Part shown: positions 1-16,102 of the stretch, piece after piece
Position numbering within the stretch: position 1 is the first letter of the stretch
How the letters are laid out: every line of letters starts with the position of its first letter
From: a virus
Taxonomy: Duplodnaviria; Heunggongvirae; Uroviricota; Caudoviricetes
Reading direction: 5' to 3' (one strand)
Virus record (IMG/VR): IMGVR_UViG_2778261646_000017
Location: 1 to 16,102 of that record
Length of the DNA: 16,102 bases
Program-made: the position numbers and the translations under genes
Notes under the pieces: model-generated
What the model saw: the letters and a program-made list of their open reading frames with translations, nothing else
Told to the model about the DNA's origin: nothing
Database searches by the model: none

Positions 1-1461
1 ATGAAAAAATTACTGCGTCTTTTTTTCCCGCTCTCGCTGCGGGTACGTTTTCTGTTGGCAACGGCAGCGGTAGTACTGGTGCTTTCGCTTGCCTACGGAA
101 TGGTCGCGCTGATCGGTTATAGCGTCAGTTTCGATAAAACTACGTTTCGGCTGTTACGTGGCGAGAGCAATCTGTTCTATACCCTTGCGAAGTGGGAAAA
201 CAATAAGTTGCATGTCGAGTTACCCGAAAATATCGACAAGCAAAGCCCCACCATGACGCTAATTTATGATGAGAACGGGCAGCTTTTATGGGCGCAACGT
301 GACGTGCCCTGGCTGATGAAGATGATCCAGCCTGACTGGCTGAAATCGAATGGTTTTCATGAAATTGAAGCGGATGTTAACGATACCAGCCTCTTGCTGA
401 GTGGAGATCATTCGATACAGCAACAGTTGCAGGAAGTGCGGGAAGATGATGACGACGCGGAGATGACCCACTCGGTAGCGGTAAACGTCTACCCGGCAAC
501 ATCGCGGATGCCAAAGTTAACCATTGTGGTGGTGGATACCATTCCGGTGGAGCTAAAAAGTTCCTATATGGTCTGGAGCTGGTTTATCTATGTGCTCTCA
601 GCCAATCTGCTGTTAGTGATCCCGCTGCTGTGGGTCGCCGCCTGGTGGAGTTTACGCCCCATCGAAGCCCTGGCAAAAGAAGTCCGCGAACTGGAAGAAC
701 ATAACCGCGAATTGCTCAATCCTGCCACAACGCGAGAACTGACCAGTCTGGTACGAAACCTGAACCGACTGTTAAAAAGTGAACGCGAACGTTACGACAA
801 ATATCGTACGACGCTCACCGACCTGACCCATAGTCTGAAAACGCCACTGGCGGTGCTGCAAAGTACGCTGCGTTCTCTGCGTAGTGAGAAGATGAGCGTC
901 AGTGATGCTGAGCCGGTAATGCTGGAGCAAATCAGCCGCATTTCACAGCAAATTGGCTACTACCTGCATCGTGCCAGTATGCGCGGCGGGACATTGCTTA
1001 GCCGCGAGCTGCATCCGGTCGCCCCACTGTTGGACAATCTCACCTCGGCGCTGAACAAAGTGTATCAACGCAAAGGGGTCAATATCTCTCTCGATATTTC
1101 GCCAGAGATCAGCTTTGTTGGTGAGCAGAACGATTTTGTCGAGGTGATGGGCAATGTGCTGGATAATGCCTGTAAATATTGCCTCGAGTTTGTCGAAATT
1201 TCTGCAAGGCAAACCGACGAGCATCTCTATATTGTGGTCGAGGATGATGGCCCCGGTATTCCATTAAGCAAGCGAGAGGTCATTTTCGACCGTGGTCAAC
1301 GGGTTGATACTTTACGCCCTGGGCAAGGTGTGGGGCTGGCGGTAGCCCGCGAAATCACCGAGCAATATGAGGGTAAAATCGTCGCCGGAGAGAGCATGCT
1401 GGGCGGTGCGCGGATGGAGGTGATTTTTGGTCGCCAGCATTCTGCGCCGAAAGATGAATAA
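1..1461 (+). CDS. phoQ: Two-component sensor histidine kinase PhoQ (complete, 486 aa)
   Basis: 486-aa ORF starting [33 protein letters not shown]; periplasmic acidic patch [12 protein letters not shown] region, H-box [10 protein letters not shown], ATPase G-boxes DDGPGI and GQGVGL; recognised as E. coli PhoQ. Confidence 0.97.
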
Positions 1462-1583
1462 ATATGTCCTTTTATCACCACAGCAAGGCAACCCATTGAT
1501 TTAATTAAACAACCCACACTGCAAAAAGTGCTAAAAACAGCAAATTGACTACACCATTAACTACACCGTTCGGTGCACTGTAT

Positions 1584-1610: not shown

Positions 1611-1900
1611 GAAATATACAGGCGGGTAATCTTTCCAGGGGGAAGCGCACCAATTCATGAGGGGCGTTAATGTCGATATGGGGATCCCCATAACGGGGCT
1701 ACCGGATTTTTTTTCCGGTTAACTGTTAATCAGGCTGGTGGGTTTTACCTGTTCGGTAGGTGTTATGATTATCGTAATACCTTTCCCCCAGTGGGGTAAA
1801 AGCTCCAACCGTAACGATGTTCGTTGTGGTTGCCTTGATGGTCTGCGTGGTCATTATGACCATTCCCAAAAACAACATATTCGTTGTTTTTCTGTGCCCC

Positions 1901-2330
1901 GACCTCCTCAAATTGAGGAGGTCGAAAGTATCAACCAGTTACCGCGCCGACTTCCTCAAATTGAGGTTCCCGAAAATATCAGCGGGTTAACGATCAAACT
2001 GGCGAGTAATTAAACTGCGAAAATTTCGCATGTGAGGGATGTAGTCGGCGCAATTTTGCGCTTTGCTTTAATCTCAGTAAGTTACCGCGCCAACTTCCAC
2101 AGTCTGTGGAAATTGGGAAGAATCAACGGTTTAGGCCTTAATCATCTGCGTAATCATAAGTAATCATAATGTTCATTCAGCCACGCAATTTTGCGTTATC
2201 GGGAATATCAGCAAGTTACCGCGCCGGATTCCGCCAATGGCTGTTTCCGAAAGAATCAACGGGTTAGGCTGGTTTCCCCGATGTTCGCCGCTGGCGAATT
2301 TCGAAAATATCAACCAGTTACCGCCGCAAC
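1901..2330. repeat. Array of seven copies of a degenerate 12-17 bp motif (ATCARC-NR-GTTA, four extended to AGTTACCGCGCC) interleaved with hairpins
   Basis: Motif copies at 1931-1948, 1976-1992, 2074-2091, 2121-2137, 2205-2225, 2254-2269, 2307-2327; perfect 11-bp-arm palindrome gacctcctcaa-a-ttgaggaggtc at 1901-1923 with a degenerate copy at 1949-1970; palindrome ttccacag-t-ctgtggaa at 2094-2110. Confidence 0.6.
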
Positions 2331-2599
2331 CGCTCCGGCTTCTTCCAGTGGTACGTTATTTTTTCTTTCTCCCGATGCAGTTCAACGCGGCGATTGTAGG
2401 CCAGCATTTCAAGAACGCGGATCCGTATGTTGCGCATATCAACATCATTAAGCTGGATACCATCACGGCGCATCACCTCAGCAACAACACGCGCATAATT
2501 TTCGGCTGTCACGCTGTCCGGCTGCGTGGTCTGTTCGTCAGCCTGCTGGTTGATTCCAGAGACGCGGCGGATTAATCGCAGTATTTCGGCTTCTGTCAT
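2318..2599 (-). CDS. Hypothetical protein, 93 aa (orphan gene after TerL; candidate accessory gene)
   Basis: ORF MTEAEILRLIRRVSGINQQADEQ...; GAGG Shine-Dalgarno 9 nt upstream of ATG at 2599; enteric-like codon usage; starts 14 bp after the TerL stop. No family recognised. Confidence 0.55.
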   Translation of the reverse strand: MTEAEILRLIRRVSGINQQADEQTTQPDSVTAENYARVVAEVMRRDGIQLNDVDMRNIRIRVLEMLAYNRRVELHREKEKITYHWKKPERLRR

Positions 2600-7795: not shown

Positions 7796-8953
7796 TTAAT
7801 CGTCGTCCTGTGGCAGTTCCAGAATCTTGATCGCGTTCGAATCCACCACGCCACCGCCTAAATATTTCTGCGTGAAAATTTTGATGAAGCCCGGCTCTGT
7901 GAGGTTGTCCGGTCTGGTGCGAACACCTGTTTCGTGATCAACAATGTAGTAACCGCGTTTGAAGTCACCCAGGGCAATAACGTTATCAGGCATAAACTCC
8001 AGATATTCGACCGGAAGGCCCAGCAACGTATCAGGATCACCCGCCTGTAAACGGTCGCGCCAGATGTAATCACCGTTCGCGTTCTTCACCTTCTGAAGTT
8101 TTGCGGCCGTCGTGGAGTTAACCACCCAGACCGCGTTTTTGCGATATTTTTTATGTAATGCAAATTTCAGGTCGATCAGCGGGTCCGCAGATGTCCACGC
8201 CAGAGATTCGGAAGGTTTAATTACCTGTAACGTACCAAAATCACGCTCTTTGTCGTTCTTCTCTGCACGGGGTACGGATAAAAAGCCTTTTGCTTTTTTG
8301 TCACCGTCGCCCACAACCAGATCGCTTTCTTCGGTTTCCGTGAAGGTGTCGCCAATCTCACCCGTCAGCCATGAAAGGATGTCCACATCGGAAAAATCCA
8401 CGATTTCCTGTGTGGTGCGCGGGTACGCATAGACCGGATACAGCTTAATGCTCACCTCGTTAATCTGCGGGGTGCTGGTCTGTTCGCGTGCCTTACCCTC
8501 TTCACCGTGGTTAACGGTCGCACCGCCAGCGGAAACAAGCTGCTTAAACTCGTTGCTGCTGATTTTCTTCACGGTACAGATGCGGCGCATGGTGGATTCA
8601 TCCGCCAGCATTCGCATGATTTCGGTGTTCAGCTCGGGGATAACGGTATAACCACCATCAGCGGGAACGCCTGTACTTAATGCGCGGGTTTCACCTGTCA
8701 GGATGTAGTTTCGTAGTTCTGCGGGGTCAGTGGTCTGACTGCTTTTACCTGGCTTGCTGCGCTCTTCGTCTGCAATGGCTTCAAGGCGGGAAATGTCTTT
8801 ATCGAGGGATTCAGCTTTAGCGCGTAATTCGTCAAATTTTGCGCCCTCAGCATCGTTAAGACTGCGGTTTTCTTTTTCCGCGTTCTCCAGCATGTCGCGC
8901 ATCTGATTTTTAATGGCGGTTTTCTGCTGGCGTAATTCGATTATTCTCGGCAT
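7796..8953 (-). CDS. Major capsid protein, HK97-fold with N-terminal coiled-coil scaffold (delta) domain, 385 aa
   Basis: N-terminal 60 aa heptad-rich (LRQQKTAIKNQMRDMLENAEKENRSLNDAEGAKFDELRAKAESLDKDISRLEA); C-terminal body with capsid-like features (…GYYIVDHETGV…); followed by a terminator. Confidence 0.93.
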   Translation of the reverse strand: MPRIIELRQQKTAIKNQMRDMLENAEKENRSLNDAEGAKFDELRAKAESLDKDISRLEAIADEERSKPGKSSQTTDPAELRNYILTGETRALSTGVPADGGYTVIPELNTEIMRMLADESTMRRICTVKKISSNEFKQLVSAGGATVNHGEEGKAREQTSTPQINEVSIKLYPVYAYPRTTQEIVDFSDVDILSWLTGEIGDTFTETEESDLVVGDGDKKAKGFLSVPRAEKNDKERDFGTLQVIKPSESLAWTSADPLIDLKFALHKKYRKNAVWVVNSTTAAKLQKVKNANGDYIWRDRLQAGDPDTLLGLPVEYLEFMPDNVIALGDFKRGYYIVDHETGVRTRPDNLTEPGFIKIFTQKYLGGGVVDSNAIKILELPQDDD

Positions 8954-8960
8954 AAAAAAA

Positions 8961-8990
8961 GTCCTGGGGTTAAGTAAGGAACTCCAGGAC
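8961..8990 (-). promoter_or_regulatory. Stem-loop plus U7 tract immediately 5' of the capsid ATG; the stem contains the AGGA Shine-Dalgarno
   Basis: - strand reads GTCCTGG-(16-nt loop)-CCAGGAC-TTTTTTT-ATG; the only SD-like sequence (AGGA, 8 nt before ATG) is in the 3' arm of the 7-bp stem. Confidence 0.5.
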
Positions 8991-9167
8991 GCGGCAAAAA
9001 CTCAACCGTTTTTCATAAGGAAATCAGCAATCGCACCGATCGTTTTCCCGCCTGGTAATGAATATTGGCGAGAACATTAACAGGCGGAAAAGTGGCCCCA
9101 GCGTCCTGGCACCACGGGCGAGAATAATCATGATTCAGTTCGGGTAAAATATGCCGATCCGGTCAGC

Positions 9168-9193
9168 GAACAACGTGGAACAACCACGAACAA
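9168..9193. promoter_or_regulatory. Phased hexamer element GAACAA-cgtg-GAACAA-ccac-GAACAA, about 215 bp upstream of the capsid gene
   Basis: Three perfect GAACAA hexamers at 10-bp spacing; 9169-9193 is identical to the reverse complement of 14781-14805. Confidence 0.5.
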
Positions 9194-9210
9194 ATAATTT
9201 ACAAAACATG

Positions 9211-9235
9211 ACAAAAAGCCGGATTGCTCCGGCTG
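9211..9235 (-). terminator. Rho-independent terminator after the PerC-like gene (end of the early operon)
   Basis: - strand: AGCCGGA-GCAA-TCCGGCT followed by TTTTTGT, 6 nt after the stop. Confidence 0.6.
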
Positions 9236-9240
9236 TGTGA

Positions 9241-9513
9241 TTATCTGTCCTGGTAATTTCGCCATATTTCATCACCAGCACCATCCATACCCATTTCGGC
9301 ATAAGTGCGATCGACCGCCTTTTTCAGGTCTCCGTAATTATCCGGCGGCTCCGGTGGCCTCTGTGCCTTCCTGGAACATTCCAGCCGTCGCATCGTGATG
9401 TGATGCCGTTCCTTGTCTGTCTCCACCAGTTGCATGACTTCACCCCATCGCGCCGACGCTCTCCGGTAAAAGCCTTTCGCCTCCAGTTCTTCCGCTATGC
9501 GGTCATGTACCAT
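9241..9513 (-). CDS. PerC-like small transcriptional activator (putative), 90 aa
   Basis: MVHDRIAEELEAKGFYRRASARWGEVM... resembles my recollection of the PerC-family N-terminal signature (LE..G.WRRAA.RW); strong GAGGGGGG SD; family assignment not verified. Confidence 0.55.
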   Translation of the reverse strand: MVHDRIAEELEAKGFYRRASARWGEVMQLVETDKERHHITMRRLECSRKAQRPPEPPDNYGDLKKAVDRTYAEMGMDGAGDEIWRNYQDR

Positions 9514-9522
9514 CGCCCCCCC

Positions 9523-9933
9523 TCAGAACGGAATATCATCACCGTAAGGGTCATCGCCTCCCGCTGGTGGCTGATTACCCTGTGTGCCTGTGGTCTTGCG
9601 CCGGCTCCCACCAGGTCGCGCCGTTCTGGCACTGATTACGCTGTCTGCAATAACCTGCCAGCCCTGCCGCGTTTCGCCGTTCTGGCCTGTCCACTGGCTT
9701 ACCTGCATGTTACCCGCCACGCTCACCAGCTCGCCTTTGTGGTGTTTTGCCAGTGCGTCGGCCTGTCTGCCAAACGCCAGGACGGATAACCACATCGTCG
9801 CCTGTCCGTCATCTGCCTGATTGCACGGCAGGGGGACCGCCATGCTTGCCATAGCCATTTGTGTGCCCTTGCTGGTGGTCTTTAACTGCGGGTCAGCCAC
9901 CAGCCGCCCGTAAGCGGCTATCTGTGCTGTCAT
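9523..9933 (-). CDS. ssb: Single-stranded DNA-binding protein, divergent, with canonical acidic DDIPF C-terminal tail, 136 aa
   Basis: OB-fold-like core (YGRLVADPQLK...WLSVLAFGRQAD...KGELVSVAGNMQVSQW), Gly/Pro-rich linker and C-terminal DDPYGDDIPF; ATGA overlap with the upstream gene. Confidence 0.8.
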   Translation of the reverse strand: MTAQIAAYGRLVADPQLKTTSKGTQMAMASMAVPLPCNQADDGQATMWLSVLAFGRQADALAKHHKGELVSVAGNMQVSQWTGQNGETRQGWQVIADSVISARTARPGGSRRKTTGTQGNQPPAGGDDPYGDDIPF

Positions 9934-10187
9934 GATTCCACCTCTCCGGTTTTAACGTTGATGGTTGTTACCTGTTCCGCTTCGGCAATCTCCCGTTCCG
10001 TCAGCGTGGCAAAGTTTGCCGCCGCCGTGGTCATGAATGCGCTTATCAGGTCGGGATGTGCTTTCGCGTATCCTTCCCCCGTGTTGCGGTCGATGATTTT
10101 TATCGCCACTCTCAGCCAGTGCTCTGTAAGGTCAATGGCGCGGTTATGCTGCTTCTTCTGATTATTAAGTTTTCCTGATGTGCGCAT
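9930..10187 (-). CDS. Hypothetical protein, 85 aa
   Basis: ORF MRTSGKLNNQKKQHNRAIDLTEHW...; GAGGGGG SD; translationally coupled to ssb. No family recognised. Confidence 0.55.
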   Translation of the reverse strand: MRTSGKLNNQKKQHNRAIDLTEHWLRVAIKIIDRNTGEGYAKAHPDLISAFMTTAAANFATLTEREIAEAEQVTTINVKTGEVES

Positions 10188-10229
10188 TTTTATTTTTACC
10201 CCCTCGTTTAAAAAGTTTTGAGTTGTGCC

Positions 10230-10465
10230 TCCCCTTGTCTACCTTATCTACCTTACTGGCTCTCATGCCAGTAATGGCGCGGCTTTCAGCGGGGTAGAGT
10301 GCTTTTATCCACTATCTACCCCGTATCTACCTCCCTGTCTGATTCAGGTAAAATCAGGTAGAGAGGGTAGATAGTAGGTAGACAGTGAAAAAAGGCTGTC
10401 TACCTAAGTTAATATACTGAATTAAATGTATTTTTCTTTACTCAGGTAGACAGGGTAGACAGCCA
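10230..10465. repeat. Iteron-type replication origin: at least 11 copies of GGTAGA / TCTACC in both orientations flanking an AT-rich core
   Basis: tgtctacc, tatctacc (x3), ggtagag, aggtagagagggtagatagtaggtagacag, gtctacct, then AT-rich taagttaatatactgaattaaatgtatttttctttac, then aggtagacagggtagacag; immediately 3' of the primase gene. Confidence 0.7.
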
Positions 10466-10475
10466 TTGCAAAAAA

Positions 10476-12224
10476 TTATAAAAACGCGTCGCAATCGTCT
10501 GTTGTTATTGCGTTAGTCTGCGTTACTCCCTTAACTTTCCGCGTAATATATTCATGTCCGTAAACTTTCGCGGCTGGCTTCATAGCCTTGCCAAAGTCAT
10601 TTACGTTTAGCGGTTTGCTCCTGCCTGCGTATGCCATAAACGCCAGATAGACGCGGTAAAGGCTGTTTCTGGTCGTGTACTTCACTGAATCGCCACCGCC
10701 ACCCATCATCAGGCCGCGCGCTTCCTCCAGAAAATTCAGGAACTGGCAAAACTCAATAACCGGATCCGTCTGTTGCTTTATTGCCAGTGCTTCATCACCG
10801 TCACGCTGTTCCAGTAGTAAAGCCCGTGCCTTCTCAGGGTCGGTAAAGTTCGCCAGCAAGCGGCGGATAATGACAGGGATTTCAGCCGCGATCTTTTCCG
10901 GTAGCTCCCTGTCTTTTTCTGCCTCGCTTACGATATTGTCGAAGCGGAAAATAACCCGACGACGTGACACGCCTCCGGCCCGTTCGGTGAATATCATCGG
11001 GTTGTTATTGGTCGCCAGCACCACCGCCCTGATTACCGTAGTGAAACGCTTTTCATATTTCGGGTTGATTTCCACGGGGTCGCCGCCCGTGATTTTCTTG
11101 ATGCCCGTGCCTTCGCCTGTATATTTCGGCTGGTCTGCCAGGACGATAAGACGACTCCCGACAACCTGCGCACGCCCACCAGCATCATCAAGCGATGTCA
11201 TTTCCGCGCTTACCGTGTTTTGTTTCCCCGCTAAAAGGCTGGCGATGTGGGTGAATGTACTTTTGCCGCTCCCGCCGTCTCCGGTGGCCTCAATAAACAT
11301 CTGCCAGTCGTACCGGTTCGCCATAATCATGTACAGCGCGGCACATATACGCATCATCTTGCGCTGGTCTTTTCCGGCTGCGTGATCAAGCCATTTATGA
11401 AAGTTTGGCGCGTTATCGCGGATGTTCTCCCCAGGTGCTGGTGGCGTGTACTCAATGCCGTTGTGCGTGGTGATCCAGTTCTCCGGCGTGTGCGGGGAAA
11501 ATTCCCCCGTTTTCAGGTCAAGCGCACCATTGGCGAACGGCAACAAATCGCCGGACGGCTCGCCCATTGGTTCGGCAATAACTTTTAACGCTTCCACGGC
11601 GTTATTGATTACGCGCTTGCTGAAAGTGGCCCTGTGCTCTGAATAGATCGCCACCATTTCGCGGCTAAGTTCCATTGTGCTGACCGGACACCATACCCCG
11701 CCGCGCCATACGTGAACGATTTCACTTTCCGGATGCACACAAACGCCATCAAATCGACCAGCAAGCATCTGTGCGCGCTCACTGTCTGCCATTTGTGCCA
11801 GTTGCGTATTTTTCTGCTCCGGCATGGTAAGCCCTGCGGCAATATTTTCACGCTCAGCATTCAGATAGCGCCGCCAGTTTTCACACTTCTGGACGTGCAT
11901 TCCTTCGGGGTAAAAATTTGCGTCCTGAATATCTGCCGCCGCCAGCTTCTGACCAATCTTTTTGGTCTCCACCAAATCCAGTTCTCCGGCCTGGTACAGC
12001 CTTACGCGCTTTTTCCCATCCGGAACAATTTTCAGCGCATCAAGTTCGGCAAGCTGATTTGGCCCAAGCCACACAGGCGGCACATTATCGCCGGATGCGG
12101 GGCCGTCCTGCTCCTGCCACTGTTTTGCATGTGACCACGCATCACTACCCGCGAAAATAATTACCTCTGTGTCTTTGTGTTTTATTCCGCGTGGCTGTTT
12201 TTTTACGTTCGGTGCCAGTTTCAT
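10476..12224 (-). CDS. Replication protein: primase / SF3-type helicase (P4 alpha-like, PICI Pri-Rep-like), 582 aa
   Basis: Walker A GDGGSGKST, Walker B-like RLIVLAD, N-terminal primase-like region; ATGA-coupled to the upstream small gene; iterons directly downstream. Confidence 0.88.
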   Translation of the reverse strand: MKLAPNVKKQPRGIKHKDTEVIIFAGSDAWSHAKQWQEQDGPASGDNVPPVWLGPNQLAELDALKIVPDGKKRVRLYQAGELDLVETKKIGQKLAAADIQDANFYPEGMHVQKCENWRRYLNAERENIAAGLTMPEQKNTQLAQMADSERAQMLAGRFDGVCVHPESEIVHVWRGGVWCPVSTMELSREMVAIYSEHRATFSKRVINNAVEALKVIAEPMGEPSGDLLPFANGALDLKTGEFSPHTPENWITTHNGIEYTPPAPGENIRDNAPNFHKWLDHAAGKDQRKMMRICAALYMIMANRYDWQMFIEATGDGGSGKSTFTHIASLLAGKQNTVSAEMTSLDDAGGRAQVVGSRLIVLADQPKYTGEGTGIKKITGGDPVEINPKYEKRFTTVIRAVVLATNNNPMIFTERAGGVSRRRVIFRFDNIVSEAEKDRELPEKIAAEIPVIIRRLLANFTDPEKARALLLEQRDGDEALAIKQQTDPVIEFCQFLNFLEEARGLMMGGGGDSVKYTTRNSLYRVYLAFMAYAGRSKPLNVNDFGKAMKPAAKVYGHEYITRKVKGVTQTNAITTDDCDAFL

Positions 12225-12916: not shown

Positions 12917-13202
12917 GTGAAAGGCTCCCAGATGAATTTTAAGGAGTCTCGCTACTACGCTGCTAAACATGGTGGCGAGACGTAACAGGGTTAGCAGACT
13001 GGTCATCTGGAAACCAGCGAGCACAAAGGCTCCCCCGTTACGCCCCGCCATAATGCGGGTATGGGTAGGTTTACGGACACAAAAAAACCGCTTATCGGAT
13101 GTGGGCGGCTGTCCGCCAGATGTATTCAGGCTGCTAAACCCGGTCGCCATGTGGGCGACGGGGGAAGCATACAGCCCCGTGATAATTTTTTGCAAGCGGT
13201 TT

Positions 13203-13406
13203 TTACGCATGATGTGACCCCTGACGAATACGGGCGGCGAATACCATCACGCAGCCAGCCGGGGATTGCTGGCGTGCCTCCTGTTCGCTGGTGGCCTCAA
13301 TGGTAATCACGCGCGGTTGTGCCGTGCTCAGGGCGATAAAACGCCAGATGTATTTATTCAGGTTGTGCGAGTCCCGCCCTTGCGGGTGTGTGGTATGATT
13401 TCTCAT
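13203..13406 (-). CDS. Small protein, 67 aa, paralog of the gene at 12746-12916 (possibly Icd-like; unverified)
   Basis: MRNHTTHPQGRDSHNLNKYIWRFIALSTAQPRVITIEATSEQEARQQSPAGCVMVFAARIRQGSHHA; GAGG SD 6 nt upstream of ATG at 13406; it is the C-terminal part of a 352-aa track ORF whose remainder I reject. Confidence 0.55.
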   Translation of the reverse strand: MRNHTTHPQGRDSHNLNKYIWRFIALSTAQPRVITIEATSEQEARQQSPAGCVMVFAARIRQGSHHA

Positions 13407-13501
13407 AGCTACCTCGATACTTTCGCTATCGTTGGTGGTTAGAGGCTGCGAAAGGACGGCAATCCTTTTCAGCCTCGTTTGCATTGAGTGATAGTTACTC
13501 A

Positions 13502-13582
13502 ACTGGATTCCAGTATAATCATCAAGTGGAATCCACTTCAAGCATTTTGTTTTGGTCTTTTTCGTGTATACTGGATTCCAGT
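13502..13582. promoter_or_regulatory. Three palindromic operators with core TGGAWTCCA, plus -10-like hexamers, in the divergent control region
   Basis: ACTGGA-T-TCCAGT at 13502-13514, AAGTGGA-A-TCCACTT at 13524-13538, ACTGGA-T-TCCAGT at 13570-13582; TATAAT at 13514-13519. Confidence 0.6.
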
Positions 13583-13602
13583 AATCACAAAGGAAACCGG
13601 AA

Positions 13603-13782
13603 ATGGAAAGAGACCATATCAATAACAAATCACAAAAATTACAGGCTCGCGCCCCGCATGAAGTTGTTGAGGCAATGGAGCAAGTCAAAGAAACAGGCGA
13701 GAGCACTGCGCAATTTATCGTTACAGCCATGCGCGGCGAGATCAAACGCCGCCAGCGTCGCAAAGCCAAAGAATCAGAATAA
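13603..13782 (+). CDS. Small ribbon-helix-helix-like DNA-binding protein (putative regulator), 59 aa; not in the ORF track because it is under 60 aa
   Basis: MERDHINNKSQKLQARAPHEVVEAMEQVKETGESTAQFIVTAMRGEIKRRQRRKAKESE; AGGAAA SD 8 nt upstream; predicted strand-helix-helix pattern; operators directly upstream. Confidence 0.5.
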   Translation: MERDHINNKSQKLQARAPHEVVEAMEQVKETGESTAQFIVTAMRGEIKRRQRRKAKESE

Positions 13783-13839
13783 TCACTATCAGCGCCGTGG
13801 CGTGAGGTACTCCGGCGCATTGCTTTACAGGTCAGTACT

Positions 13840-14049
13840 ATGAGCAAAAAACACCGATCAGCAGATGAGATTTTTGCAGAACAACGAAGATTGCTTTTGC
13901 AAAGTATCATTTCACGCCAGCAAGAGAAGGCGCGAGCTAAACAAATGCCACCAAATACAGAACCAGCGCCTACAAGATTTGCGCTTGATGACTTTCTCGA
14001 TAAACACCCCAGGGTAATGAAAGCAAACAAAAACCGCCCACCAGGCTGA
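13840..14049 (+). CDS. Hypothetical protein, 69 aa
   Basis: MSKKHRSADEIFAEQRRLLLQSIISRQQEKARAKQ...; weak AGGT SD; followed by a + strand terminator. No family recognised. Confidence 0.4.
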   Translation: MSKKHRSADEIFAEQRRLLLQSIISRQQEKARAKQMPPNTEPAPTRFALDDFLDKHPRVMKANKNRPPG

Positions 14050-14140
14050 TCACATTGCCCACCAGCCTGATAGCGGCTATCATCCCCGTGCTTATGTTTG
14101 AGATCACACACACAAACGGCGCAGCGGGTTATCTGTTCAG

Positions 14141-14173
14141 AAAGGCGGCTCCATTTCAGGGCCGCTTTTTTTA
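14141..14173 (+). terminator. Rho-independent terminator for the two small + strand genes
   Basis: AAAGGCGGC-(11-nt loop)-GCCGC followed by TTTTTTT on the + strand. Confidence 0.55.
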
Positions 14174-14318
14174 TTCCTGAAAAACCCCAATTTTGTTGTT
14201 TTTCAGTTTCACCAGGGCGAACGAATCCCCGCCCACGTTCTGGCGTATATTCAATCTTCATGGTTATAGCTCTGTGTTCAGATGATTGATGTGTGGCGGC
14301 TGCGTGCCGCCAGCGTGA

Positions 14319-14507
14319 TTAATGAACTGCCTTGCAGCTATCCTTCCAGGCCAGAACCTCGGATAAAGACCAGCCAACGGAACGACCGCCAAGTTTACGA
14401 CGTGATGGGAATTGTCCGGCCTTTTCCAGGCGGTAGCGACACGTACGGCTAAGGCCGGTTAGTTTTTCGCATTCTTTTTCACGTATAAACCGATCAGTGC
14501 TTAACAC
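14319..14507 (-). CDS. alpA: AlpA-family transcriptional regulator / excisionase-like HTH protein (62 aa from GTG; track ORF extends to a TTG at 14588)
   Basis: DRFIREKECEKLTGLSRTCRYRLEKAGQFPSRRKLGGRSVGWSLSEVLAWK matches the AlpA HTH signature (TGLSRST.YR....G.FP...KLG.R.V.W); GTG at 14507 has a strong AAAGGGGGG SD 5 nt upstream. Confidence 0.8.
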   Translation of the reverse strand: MLSTDRFIREKECEKLTGLSRTCRYRLEKAGQFPSRRKLGGRSVGWSLSEVLAWKDSCKAVH

Positions 14508-14780
14508 TATTGCCCCCCTTTCGTTTCTTAAAGAGTCATCAGGTGTCTTATTGTGTCGTATTGTTCCCGCTAGAGTGATGAATGGCAAATATTGAGGATG
14601 TATGATTTACAGAAAATGAAACAGTAAGAATAAAATCTTTTAAATTCATGTTAATACAAAGGCATAAAATATTGTTTCATGCCTTTTTTCTCACGCGTTA
14701 AAGCGTTATTCGCTAATGTATAAAAAAACAGTCACACAAATAAAATCAGTCACTTATAAACCTGTGTGCTTTTTCGCCTC

Positions 14781-14872: not shown

Positions 14873-16102
14873 TTATTTTCTTCTGGCTGCTGGTAGTGCG
14901 GTTACGTTTTCATGTGTTCCCGCCAGTATCCCTAACCGCTCCATCCACATATCCAGCGCATTGCGTTTAGCATCCAGATAACGGGAATGATTATAAACTC
15001 GCTGCATTCCTGGCATCTGGTGGCCTGTAAGCTGCTCCACGACGTGAGGATCCACGCCTAAATCGCTCAGCATCGTTGTAAAGGTGCGCCGGATGTCATG
15101 TAGTGACCAGTGAGGGTGATTTAGCCTCCTGTGCGCTAATCTGCCGTACTGCGACACGCTTGTTTCCTGTTTCACTTCCCCCAGCAATAAGCCCGTGTGC
15201 CTGTTCTGCTCCACCAGCTGCGTGACGAACGGCAGTATTGCTTCCGGTATGGGCCGGAATATTGCCACCTTCGTTTTGCTGTGTTCTTTCGGCACGGTCC
15301 AGAGCATTTCGGTAAAATCCCACTCGCTGATCTCCGATAACCTCAGTTCTACCGTCCGGCATCCGAACACAATCAGGAGGCGGATTAACGCGATGTAGTA
15401 GGGGGAGAATATTTTTTTGTCCAGTGCCTGCAATAATTCGCCCAGTTCTTTGGTGCTTAAGACACGCTCGCTTATATCCAGTTTTTTCCCAACGTCCGCC
15501 ACACTCATATCATCAAGAACGTTGCTGATTGCATAGCGCCGCCTCCGGCAGAACTTAAGCGCCTGTTTGCACGTCTGTAGCAAGAATCCGGCAGTAACAG
15601 GCGTTCGCTTTGCCACCTGGTCAAAACAGGCCAGCCAGTGCCGTAGCTCGCATTTATCCAGCGGCATAGCACCAATGTGCTGTATTACGTGATTATTAAG
15701 GCGCTTTTTCAGGGCGGCATAATCCACGCGGTTTTCCTTTGCGTACGACTCAAGCCAGTAGGTGAGCGCATCGCCAACCGTTACCGGCTTTAACGCTTCC
15801 TGTACGGTGTAATTAAGCTCATGACGTGGATTTTTCCCCTCTGCCAGCCATGCGCGACACTGGGCGGCTTTTTCCCTGGCTGATTTCAGGCTCAGATCAG
15901 GATAATTTCCCAGCTTAATGCGTTCCGGTGGTGCCCCCCTTCCCGTTCCGGCCCTGTAAGTGAAATACCAGGTTAAAAGGCCACTGGTTGAATGCCTGAC
16001 GCTCAGGTTTCCACCGTCATTAAGAAAGGCTGTTTTTTGGGCGGGTGTGCCGTTGATTTTCCTCAGCTGTGTATCGCTCAGTTTGTTAAGTGCTCTGCTC
16101 AT
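14873..16102 (-). CDS. int: Tyrosine recombinase / integrase, P4-type (409 aa; start codon at the window edge, could extend further)
   Basis: N-terminal arm-binding-like domain (LSDTQLRKI...GLLTWYFTYRAG), catalytic region with HDIRRTF...LGHQ-like...RVYNHSRY (R-H-R-Y residues). Confidence 0.92.
   Translation of the reverse strand: MSRALNKLSDTQLRKINGTPAQKTAFLNDGGNLSVRHSTSGLLTWYFTYRAGTGRGAPPERIKLGNYPDLSLKSAREKAAQCRAWLAEGKNPRHELNYTVQEALKPVTVGDALTYWLESYAKENRVDYAALKKRLNNHVIQHIGAMPLDKCELRHWLACFDQVAKRTPVTAGFLLQTCKQALKFCRRRRYAISNVLDDMSVADVGKKLDISERVLSTKELGELLQALDKKIFSPYYIALIRLLIVFGCRTVELRLSEISEWDFTEMLWTVPKEHSKTKVAIFRPIPEAILPFVTQLVEQNRHTGLLLGEVKQETSVSQYGRLAHRRLNHPHWSLHDIRRTFTTMLSDLGVDPHVVEQLTGHQMPGMQRVYNHSRYLDAKRNALDMWMERLGILAGTHENVTALPAARRK

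Follow-up and report, generated by a model that had tools for sequence, protein, structure and literature searches.

Organization of the island

The window, by which we mean the whole stretch of 16,102 nucleotides that was analysed, contains a capsid-forming PICI (cf-PICI) inserted between phoQ and roxA (Table 1). The chromosome of Escherichia coli O7:K1 CE10 is 100% identical across the 1.4 kb of the window that were queried, and that of E. coli IAI39 is 99.9% identical. The att core is a 21-bp direct repeat, ACTACACCATTAACTACACCG, one copy of which follows phoQ and the other the integrase gene in the CE10 record; with this core at either end, the island measures about 14.3 kb. Its main genes all lie on the minus strand and begin, in the order of transcription, with those for the integrase and AlpA, followed by a c4/Icd-like region, a DUF4222 gene and a primase/helicase-type replication initiator. 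Past the replication origin and the three small genes that are the main subject of this analysis comes the packaging module, with genes for the HK97-type capsid, protease, portal, head closure and head-tail connector proteins, an HNH protein, TerS and TerL. The capsid protein has a Phage_capsid match in Pfam (E = 7.4e-62) and the remaining packaging genes are identified by their PGAP names, among which no tail or lysis genes are found for this island.

Table 1. Features of the window, ordered by position.
Feature	Position	Strand	Evidence or remark
phoQ	1-1461		precedes the island
att core, 21-bp direct repeat	1548-1568		second copy in CE10 beyond the integrase gene (L001 18030-18050)
Hairpin array	1893-2334		distal island end, between att core and last gene
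Hairpin before capsid ATG	8951-8992	-	stem GTCCTGG...CCAGGAC
Intrinsic-terminator-like hairpin and U-run	9217-9234	-	directly after perC stop; 7 pairs, 5 GC, tail TTTTTG
perC, 90 aa	9241-9513	-	ORF and PGAP CDS
ssb, 136 aa	9523-9933	-	ORF and PGAP CDS
85-aa protein gene	9930-10187	-	ORF and PGAP CDS; first gene past the origin
Replication origin	10233-10467	.	between primase stop and 85-aa protein gene
Primase/helicase-type replication initiator	10476-12224	-	D5_N, DUF5906 and Pox_D5 (Pfam); PGAP 'DNA primase family protein'
c4/Icd-like region, then DUF4222 gene		-	after AlpA and before primase in transcription order
C4 antisense RNA	12968-13055	-	Rfam match
isrK-like match	13081-13159	-	Rfam match
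a1/b1 target	13123-13172	-	Rfam match, just under gathering threshold
352-aa ORF	13203-14261	-	uncalled by PGAP; probably spurious
YlcI/YnfO-family gene	13603-13782	+	overlapped by 352-aa ORF
Hypothetical gene	13840-14049	+	overlapped by 352-aa ORF
AlpA	14319-14588	-	Phage_AlpA Pfam match
Integrase	14873-16102	-	ORF and PGAP name

This arrangement has the features of the published cf-PICI architecture (10.1101/2022.09.08.507074): integrase, alpA and pri/rep genes, an iteron origin, a single direction of transcription, a length of about 15 kb and a specific att site, together with the island's own capsid-to-TerL set without tail or lysis genes. The sequence-only reading had taken the element for a satellite, and the cf-PICI gene set at phoQ/roxA bears this out. 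In O157:H7, the corresponding element occupies the identical phoQ/roxA site and encodes an identical TerS protein, so the CE10 island is an allele of EcCIEDL933, the element on which experiments have been done. The two differ in the primase (D5/DUF5906 in the CE10 island, DUF927 in the O157:H7 element), in an extra small ORF of the O157 copy and in the spacer between perC and the capsid gene, which is shorter in CE10. Induction and transfer by helpers HK106 and HK446, with the helper supplying the tails, were shown for the EcCIEDL933 allele, and the mutants of that study are in packaging genes only (10.1101/2022.09.08.507074).

The origin directly follows the primase gene. Its iterons, GGTAGAC/CTGTCTACC, number about a dozen and form two opposed sets, in both orientations, around an AT-rich core at approximately 10400-10440; repeat families and 24 inverted pairs were detected, and the GC content drops to 0.33. 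This agrees with the published PICI layout, in which pri-rep is followed by an iteron origin (PMC6092414).

The three-gene block

Beyond the origin, three genes encode an 85-aa protein, an SSB (single-stranded DNA-binding protein) and a PerC-family protein. PGAP calls all three CDS at the same positions in the identical CE10 sequence, in exact agreement with the three minus-strand ORFs delineated in the sequence-only reading. Its proposal that the 85-aa protein gene is ATGA-coupled to ssb also stands, as the tcat at 9930-9933 of the plus strand is ATGA on the minus strand, and the stop codon of the former gene overlaps the start codon of the latter. The ssb stop is separated from the perC ATG by 9 nt, with a G-rich Shine-Dalgarno sequence, TGAGGGGGGGCGATG, in between. 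Median dN/dS values of 0.21 for the 85-aa protein gene, 0.19 for ssb and 0.28 for perC are those of purifying selection, so these three genes are not chance ORFs.

The hairpin that follows the perC stop folds, as RNA, with -14.4 kcal/mol (z -3.8; equally stable shuffles, 0 of 200) and is succeeded by UUUUUG. It is the predicted end of the replication/early transcription unit, which fits the earlier suggestion that the early operon ends here; from perC to the packaging module there is a 287-bp gap in addition to this hairpin. A scan of the minus strand returned no sigma-70-like promoter, be it for the three-gene block or the capsid operon, and an Rfam scan of 8900-10500 returned no RNA element. 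These three genes make up the distal end of the island's replication module. RefSeq already names the SSB and PerC proteins, and the island is a member of a satellite family that has been published.

The satellite SSB

By profile searches and by its structural model, the 136-aa protein is a genuine member of the bacterial-type SSB family with a predicted canonical OB fold. It scores above both curated cut-offs, with 61 bits against PF00436 (E = 1.3e-16; cut-off 26) and 60.1 bits against TIGR00621 (cut-off 53.95), and matches phrog_44, 'single strand DNA binding protein', with E = 6.7e-41, as well as about 30 solved SSBs in a phmmer search. In the AF2 model, residues 1-101 form the OB fold with high core pLDDT (elements E2-11, E16-19, E25-35, E45-54, H55-62, E69-82 and E88-101) and residues 106-128 are disordered, with pLDDT below 50. 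The top 50 Foldseek matches of the model are all SSBs, including SsbA, with E-values down to 6.7e-9 and target-normalised TM-scores up to 0.81. The protein had been described from its letters as a highly diverged SSB with an OB-fold-like core, and at 25% identity to E. coli SSB over 125 aa (the reference sequence being 100% identical to PDB 1eqq_A) that description is confirmed.

The satellite protein shares with E. coli SSB (1eqq) the OB fold, the helix between strands 3 and 4, a disordered linker and the DDIPF end, but is shorter (136 versus 178 aa), and its linker is short and basic, with about 25 residues as opposed to about 55 in the Gly/Gln/Pro-rich linker of E. coli SSB. Of the four aromatic residues that stack on ssDNA in E. 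coli SSB, three have counterparts: W54 aligns with W48, F60 with F54 and W88 with W81, and all 26 aligned alleles keep them unchanged. W40, the fourth, has no counterpart, owing to a shorter L23 loop, and a leucine takes the place of His55, so the binding mode and oligomeric state may differ from those of the host protein.

The last five residues are DDIPF, identical to the end of E. coli SSB, just as the sequence-only reading had it. The complete tail is DDPYGDDIPF, with a family form of DDPYGD[D/G/N/E]IPF: among 120 relatives, GDDIPF is the ending of 66 and D[G/N/E]IPF that of most of the remainder, and about 110 of the 120 end in IPF. In the 26-allele alignment, tail positions D128, P129, D132, I134, P135 and F136 are invariant; over alleles of 136-149 aa, the linker varies in both length and sequence, and the ten-residue tail is conserved. 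In sequenced phages, the best tblastn identity to this SSB is about 32-35% and megablast gives no match, which makes the lineage satellite-specific.

Mobile elements are already known to encode SSBs of this type, with the tip of the host protein. SSB genes are common on other mobile elements such as conjugative plasmids (PMC8406263, PMC11137577), and both the SSB of F-type conjugative plasmids and a phage SSB-like protein ending in FDDDIPF, the latter described in a 2026 preprint (10.64898/2026.04.29.721553), carry such a tip. The plasmid proteins are encoded in the leading region and act on incoming conjugative ssDNA, whereas the satellite ssb lies beside a satellite theta/iteron origin, and its lineage is not close to either the plasmid or the phage SSBs.

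The sequence-only reading raised the possibility that the satellite SSB competes with host and helper SSB for partner proteins. A family-wide tip that matches the host's, on a satellite-specific lineage, is consistent with an interfering protein that would titrate SSB partners from host or helper DNA, or form mixed oligomers with host SSB, and thereby bias replication resources to the island or damp helper replication. The same preprint proposes that the phage protein ending in FDDDIPF may displace host ExoI or compete with it. However, plain replication support predicts a conserved tip equally well, the same cassette is present in classical PICIs that have dedicated interference genes, and EcCIEDL933 is said, in the published abstract, to reproduce without cost to the helper (10.1101/2022.09.08.507074), which argues against a strongly antagonistic role. 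Interference appears quite unlikely.

An involvement in immunity would make the satellite SSB an item of accessory cargo: towards host defences that respond to phage SSBs or ssDNA metabolism, it would be a trigger, a decoy or a shield. In the preprint, the tip-bearing phage protein is required for activation of DRT10 (10.64898/2026.04.29.721553), and PICIs carry defence cargo according to a general statement in another (10.1101/2025.02.11.637232). Against this, PADLOC matches none of the three proteins, ssb is situated beside the origin in the replication module, away from the island ends with their variable accessory regions, and it is conserved over islands with differing cargo. We consider such a role very unlikely. 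A reading of the block as defence genes proper was rejected for lack of PADLOC support and for its place in the island.

The 85-aa protein

The product of the gene coupled to ssb matches phrog_1231 (E = 2.5e-48), a family with no assigned function, as do all 52 of its 52 aligned distant relatives. An exhaustive profile search found 679 representative distant relatives (clusters) in phages and satellites, with the common motif IDxxFGxGYAKxHPELIAAFMxTAA. Searches of Pfam, NCBIfam, PADLOC and PDB, by sequence and by profile, gave no match for the 85-aa protein, and tblastn against GenBank phages gave nothing. Its AF2 model is a helical bundle of low confidence (pLDDT 66), for which Foldseek returned no structural neighbour.

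The one clue to the function of this protein is its translational coupling to ssb, and it is probably a replication accessory factor. None of six distant IMG/VR loci has the homologue beside ssb, and in one of them it follows a primase; the link to SSB is therefore one of local synteny. With a widespread family and a sharply conserved motif, this protein poses a more open question than the SSB.

Distribution and synteny

The order primase, origin, 85-aa protein gene, ssb is found in 74 of 80 related satellite loci of IMG/VR, with about 290 bp from the primase to the 85-aa protein gene. Across the 80 loci, the primase allele is 32-100% identical, and the 85-aa protein gene and ssb are at least about 70% identical. 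Both the O157:H7 EcCIEDL933-type and the classical EcCICFT073-type PICIs display the order pri-ori-small ORF-ssb(-perC), and their SSBs are about 70-100% identical to the CE10 SSB and identically annotated in RefSeq. In classical PICIs, ssb is directly followed by lambda E-like, D-like and Nu1-like genes; since the same pair of 85-aa protein gene and ssb precedes both types of capsid gene, it closes the replication module in classical PICIs and cf-PICIs alike. The block is a common cassette of these two kinds of island, which, together with the existing RefSeq annotation, goes beyond what had been read from the letters.

In 5 of the 80 loci ssb is missing after the 85-aa protein gene, so it may be dispensable. 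An HK97-type capsid gene is present in 11 of the loci and perC in 27. Counted over the loci with enough downstream sequence to judge, which are not independent of one another, perC comes after ssb in 9 of the 10 with an HK97-type capsid, 10 of the 40 of lambda-E type and 5 of the remaining 23. Given this variation, perC is an optional insert.

The region 9100-10500, in whole or in part, has DNA matches in 1711 of 5426 complete E. coli genomes, at up to six places in each. A megablast search of the block against 50,697 phage records found no DNA match, which rules out recent phage DNA as its source.

The few loci without ssb and the truncated alleles in databases could be taken to mean that the block is a decaying or hitch-hiking remnant devoid of current function. 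With dN/dS close to 0.2 in all three genes, invariant residues in both the OB core and the tail, and matches to all or part of the block in a third of complete E. coli genomes, we regard this as extremely improbable. The stricter reading of the genes as pseudogenes is contradicted by the same dN/dS of about 0.2.

Further SSB genes lie on two small circular records typed as non-mobilizable plasmids. The 22.9-kb Klebsiella pneumoniae record NZ_CP033626.1 encodes an integrase, an Icd-like protein, a DUF4222 protein, a primase-helicase, a hypothetical protein, an SSB and a PerC, the last four in the gene order of the CE10 island; it is PICI-like and, with one segment duplicated, may represent a satellite that was excised or wrongly assembled. 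In the 15.5-kb pEho8-4 of Enterobacter hormaechei, the gene for a VapE-domain protein precedes one for an SSB of 104 aa, a length that leaves no room for the tail.

The PerC-family protein

The 90-aa protein matches PF06069 along residues 1-89 (E = 2.7e-43; 146.6 bits, cut-off 22.6), so the PerC assignment made in the sequence-only reading holds over the full length of the protein. It also matches phrog_994, has a weak sub-threshold match to ANR and is named 'PerC family transcriptional regulator' by PGAP. It shares with the PerC/Pch regulators of EPEC and EHEC the full-length PF06069 match and a location on mobile elements. Transcriptional activation of LEE1/ler would be the activity expected of the family; according to PMC11773190, the PerC-like genes of EcCIEDL933 and EcCICFT073 have no effect on LEE1 fusions and the PerC homologue of the PICI EcCIMP1 represses LEE instead of activating it. 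In the CE10 island, perC would encode a small regulator and be an optional insert that parts the replication module from the packaging module.

The whole block could be viewed as a means of delivering PerC, which would switch on either a host regulon or the operon for capsid and packaging proteins, while ssb would just be transcribed along with it. The gene is placed directly upstream of the packaging module (with the terminator-like hairpin and the 287-bp gap between them), it is found after ssb far more often in HK97-capsid loci than in lambda-E-type loci, and its family is one of transcription regulators, including the PICI homologue that represses LEE. However, the loci behind these counts are not independent, perC is absent from most classical PICIs that have the pair of 85-aa protein gene and ssb, the promoter scan gave neither a promoter nor a binding site, and the conserved SSB is left unexplained. 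We judge a block centred on PerC to be unlikely, and PerC as an activator of the late operon is a weak lead.

Other features of the island

Three Rfam matches, to the C4 antisense RNA (72.7 bits; gathering threshold 45), to the a1/b1 target just upstream of it (45.5 bits, just under the gathering threshold of 46.7) and, likewise upstream, to an isrK-like RNA, all fall within the region that PGAP calls Icd-like. By sequence similarity, the satellite C4 region is a c4-icd immunity RNA module of the P1/P7/P4 type; such hits are mentioned in a PICI survey (PMC10111431). A 352-aa ORF runs across the regulatory region, where it overlaps two plus-strand genes, the YlcI/YnfO-family gene and a hypothetical gene, and where PGAP calls several Icd-like fragments, including a pseudogene. 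This ORF is probably spurious, the icd region that it covers being rearranged or duplicated.

The distal end of the island, from the att core to the last gene, is occupied by at least five hairpin units of about 48-54 nt each. The stems differ from unit to unit with the pairing retained (for example CGACCTCCTC/GAGGAGGTCG, TTCCACAG/CTGTGGAA and TTCGCC/GGCGAA) within a conserved CCG...CGAA frame, which is followed by A(A/G)TATCA(A/G)C..GTTAC. The array is unannotated and has no Rfam match; 1321 of 5426 E. coli genomes have patchy matches to it, and the PICI of CFT073 is among the places matched.

Immediately in front of the capsid ATG is another hairpin, with a loop of about 15 nt, a run of seven T after it and an AGGA Shine-Dalgarno sequence in its 3' arm. 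In a cf-PICI with a 69% identical capsid protein, the stem is kept and the loop is wholly different; two more distant islands are without it. This hairpin may work as an attenuator, or may mask the packaging operon's ribosome-binding site.

Proposed role of the satellite SSB

The gene for the SSB lies approximately 300 bp from the iteron origin, in a conserved order with the primase gene. On balance, we hold it to be reasonably probable that the protein is a replication accessory factor that uses the host partners of the SSB tip. The island's primase/helicase is most likely the replication initiator that it serves. A PICI survey groups Primase, SSB and DUF5906 in a Replication category and colocalises them with mapped origins (PMC10111431), and the C-terminal tip of SSB is an established docking site of many genome-maintenance proteins according to the abstract of PMC10164576.

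From these observations we infer that the satellite SSB binds ssDNA, recruits partners and takes part in island replication, in the following manner. A helper phage would induce the island via AlpA, and the island primase/helicase would then open the neighbouring iteron origin. The single strands exposed there would be coated by the island-encoded SSB, whose host-type tip, DDPYGDDIPF, could recruit host SSB-interacting proteins to the DNA of the island. If E. coli SSB is taken as the model, the chi subunit of the clamp loader, PriA and others would be among them. The island has an initiator and a primase but no polymerase, so the host replisome is needed. A private supply of SSB might also spare the island from relying on the host pool during joint amplification of phage and island DNA.

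A bolder variant, which we think decidedly unlikely, is that the 85-aa protein and the SSB act as a pair that redirects the host SSB interactome to the island origin, with the phrog_1231 protein as loader or specificity factor and with SSB-sensing defence being set off or blunted as a side effect. Redirection could proceed through mixed oligomers with host SSB or by monopolising tip-binding proteins such as chi, PriA or ExoI.

With matching DNA in a third of complete genomes, E. coli populations contain a large pool of accessory SSBs that share with the host protein its docking tip and little else. If satellite SSBs just support satellite replication, their identification is a matter of routine annotation. 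If it is true that they shift access to the host SSB-binding proteins, they would matter for the conflict between satellite, helper and host, and for defence systems that sense ssDNA.
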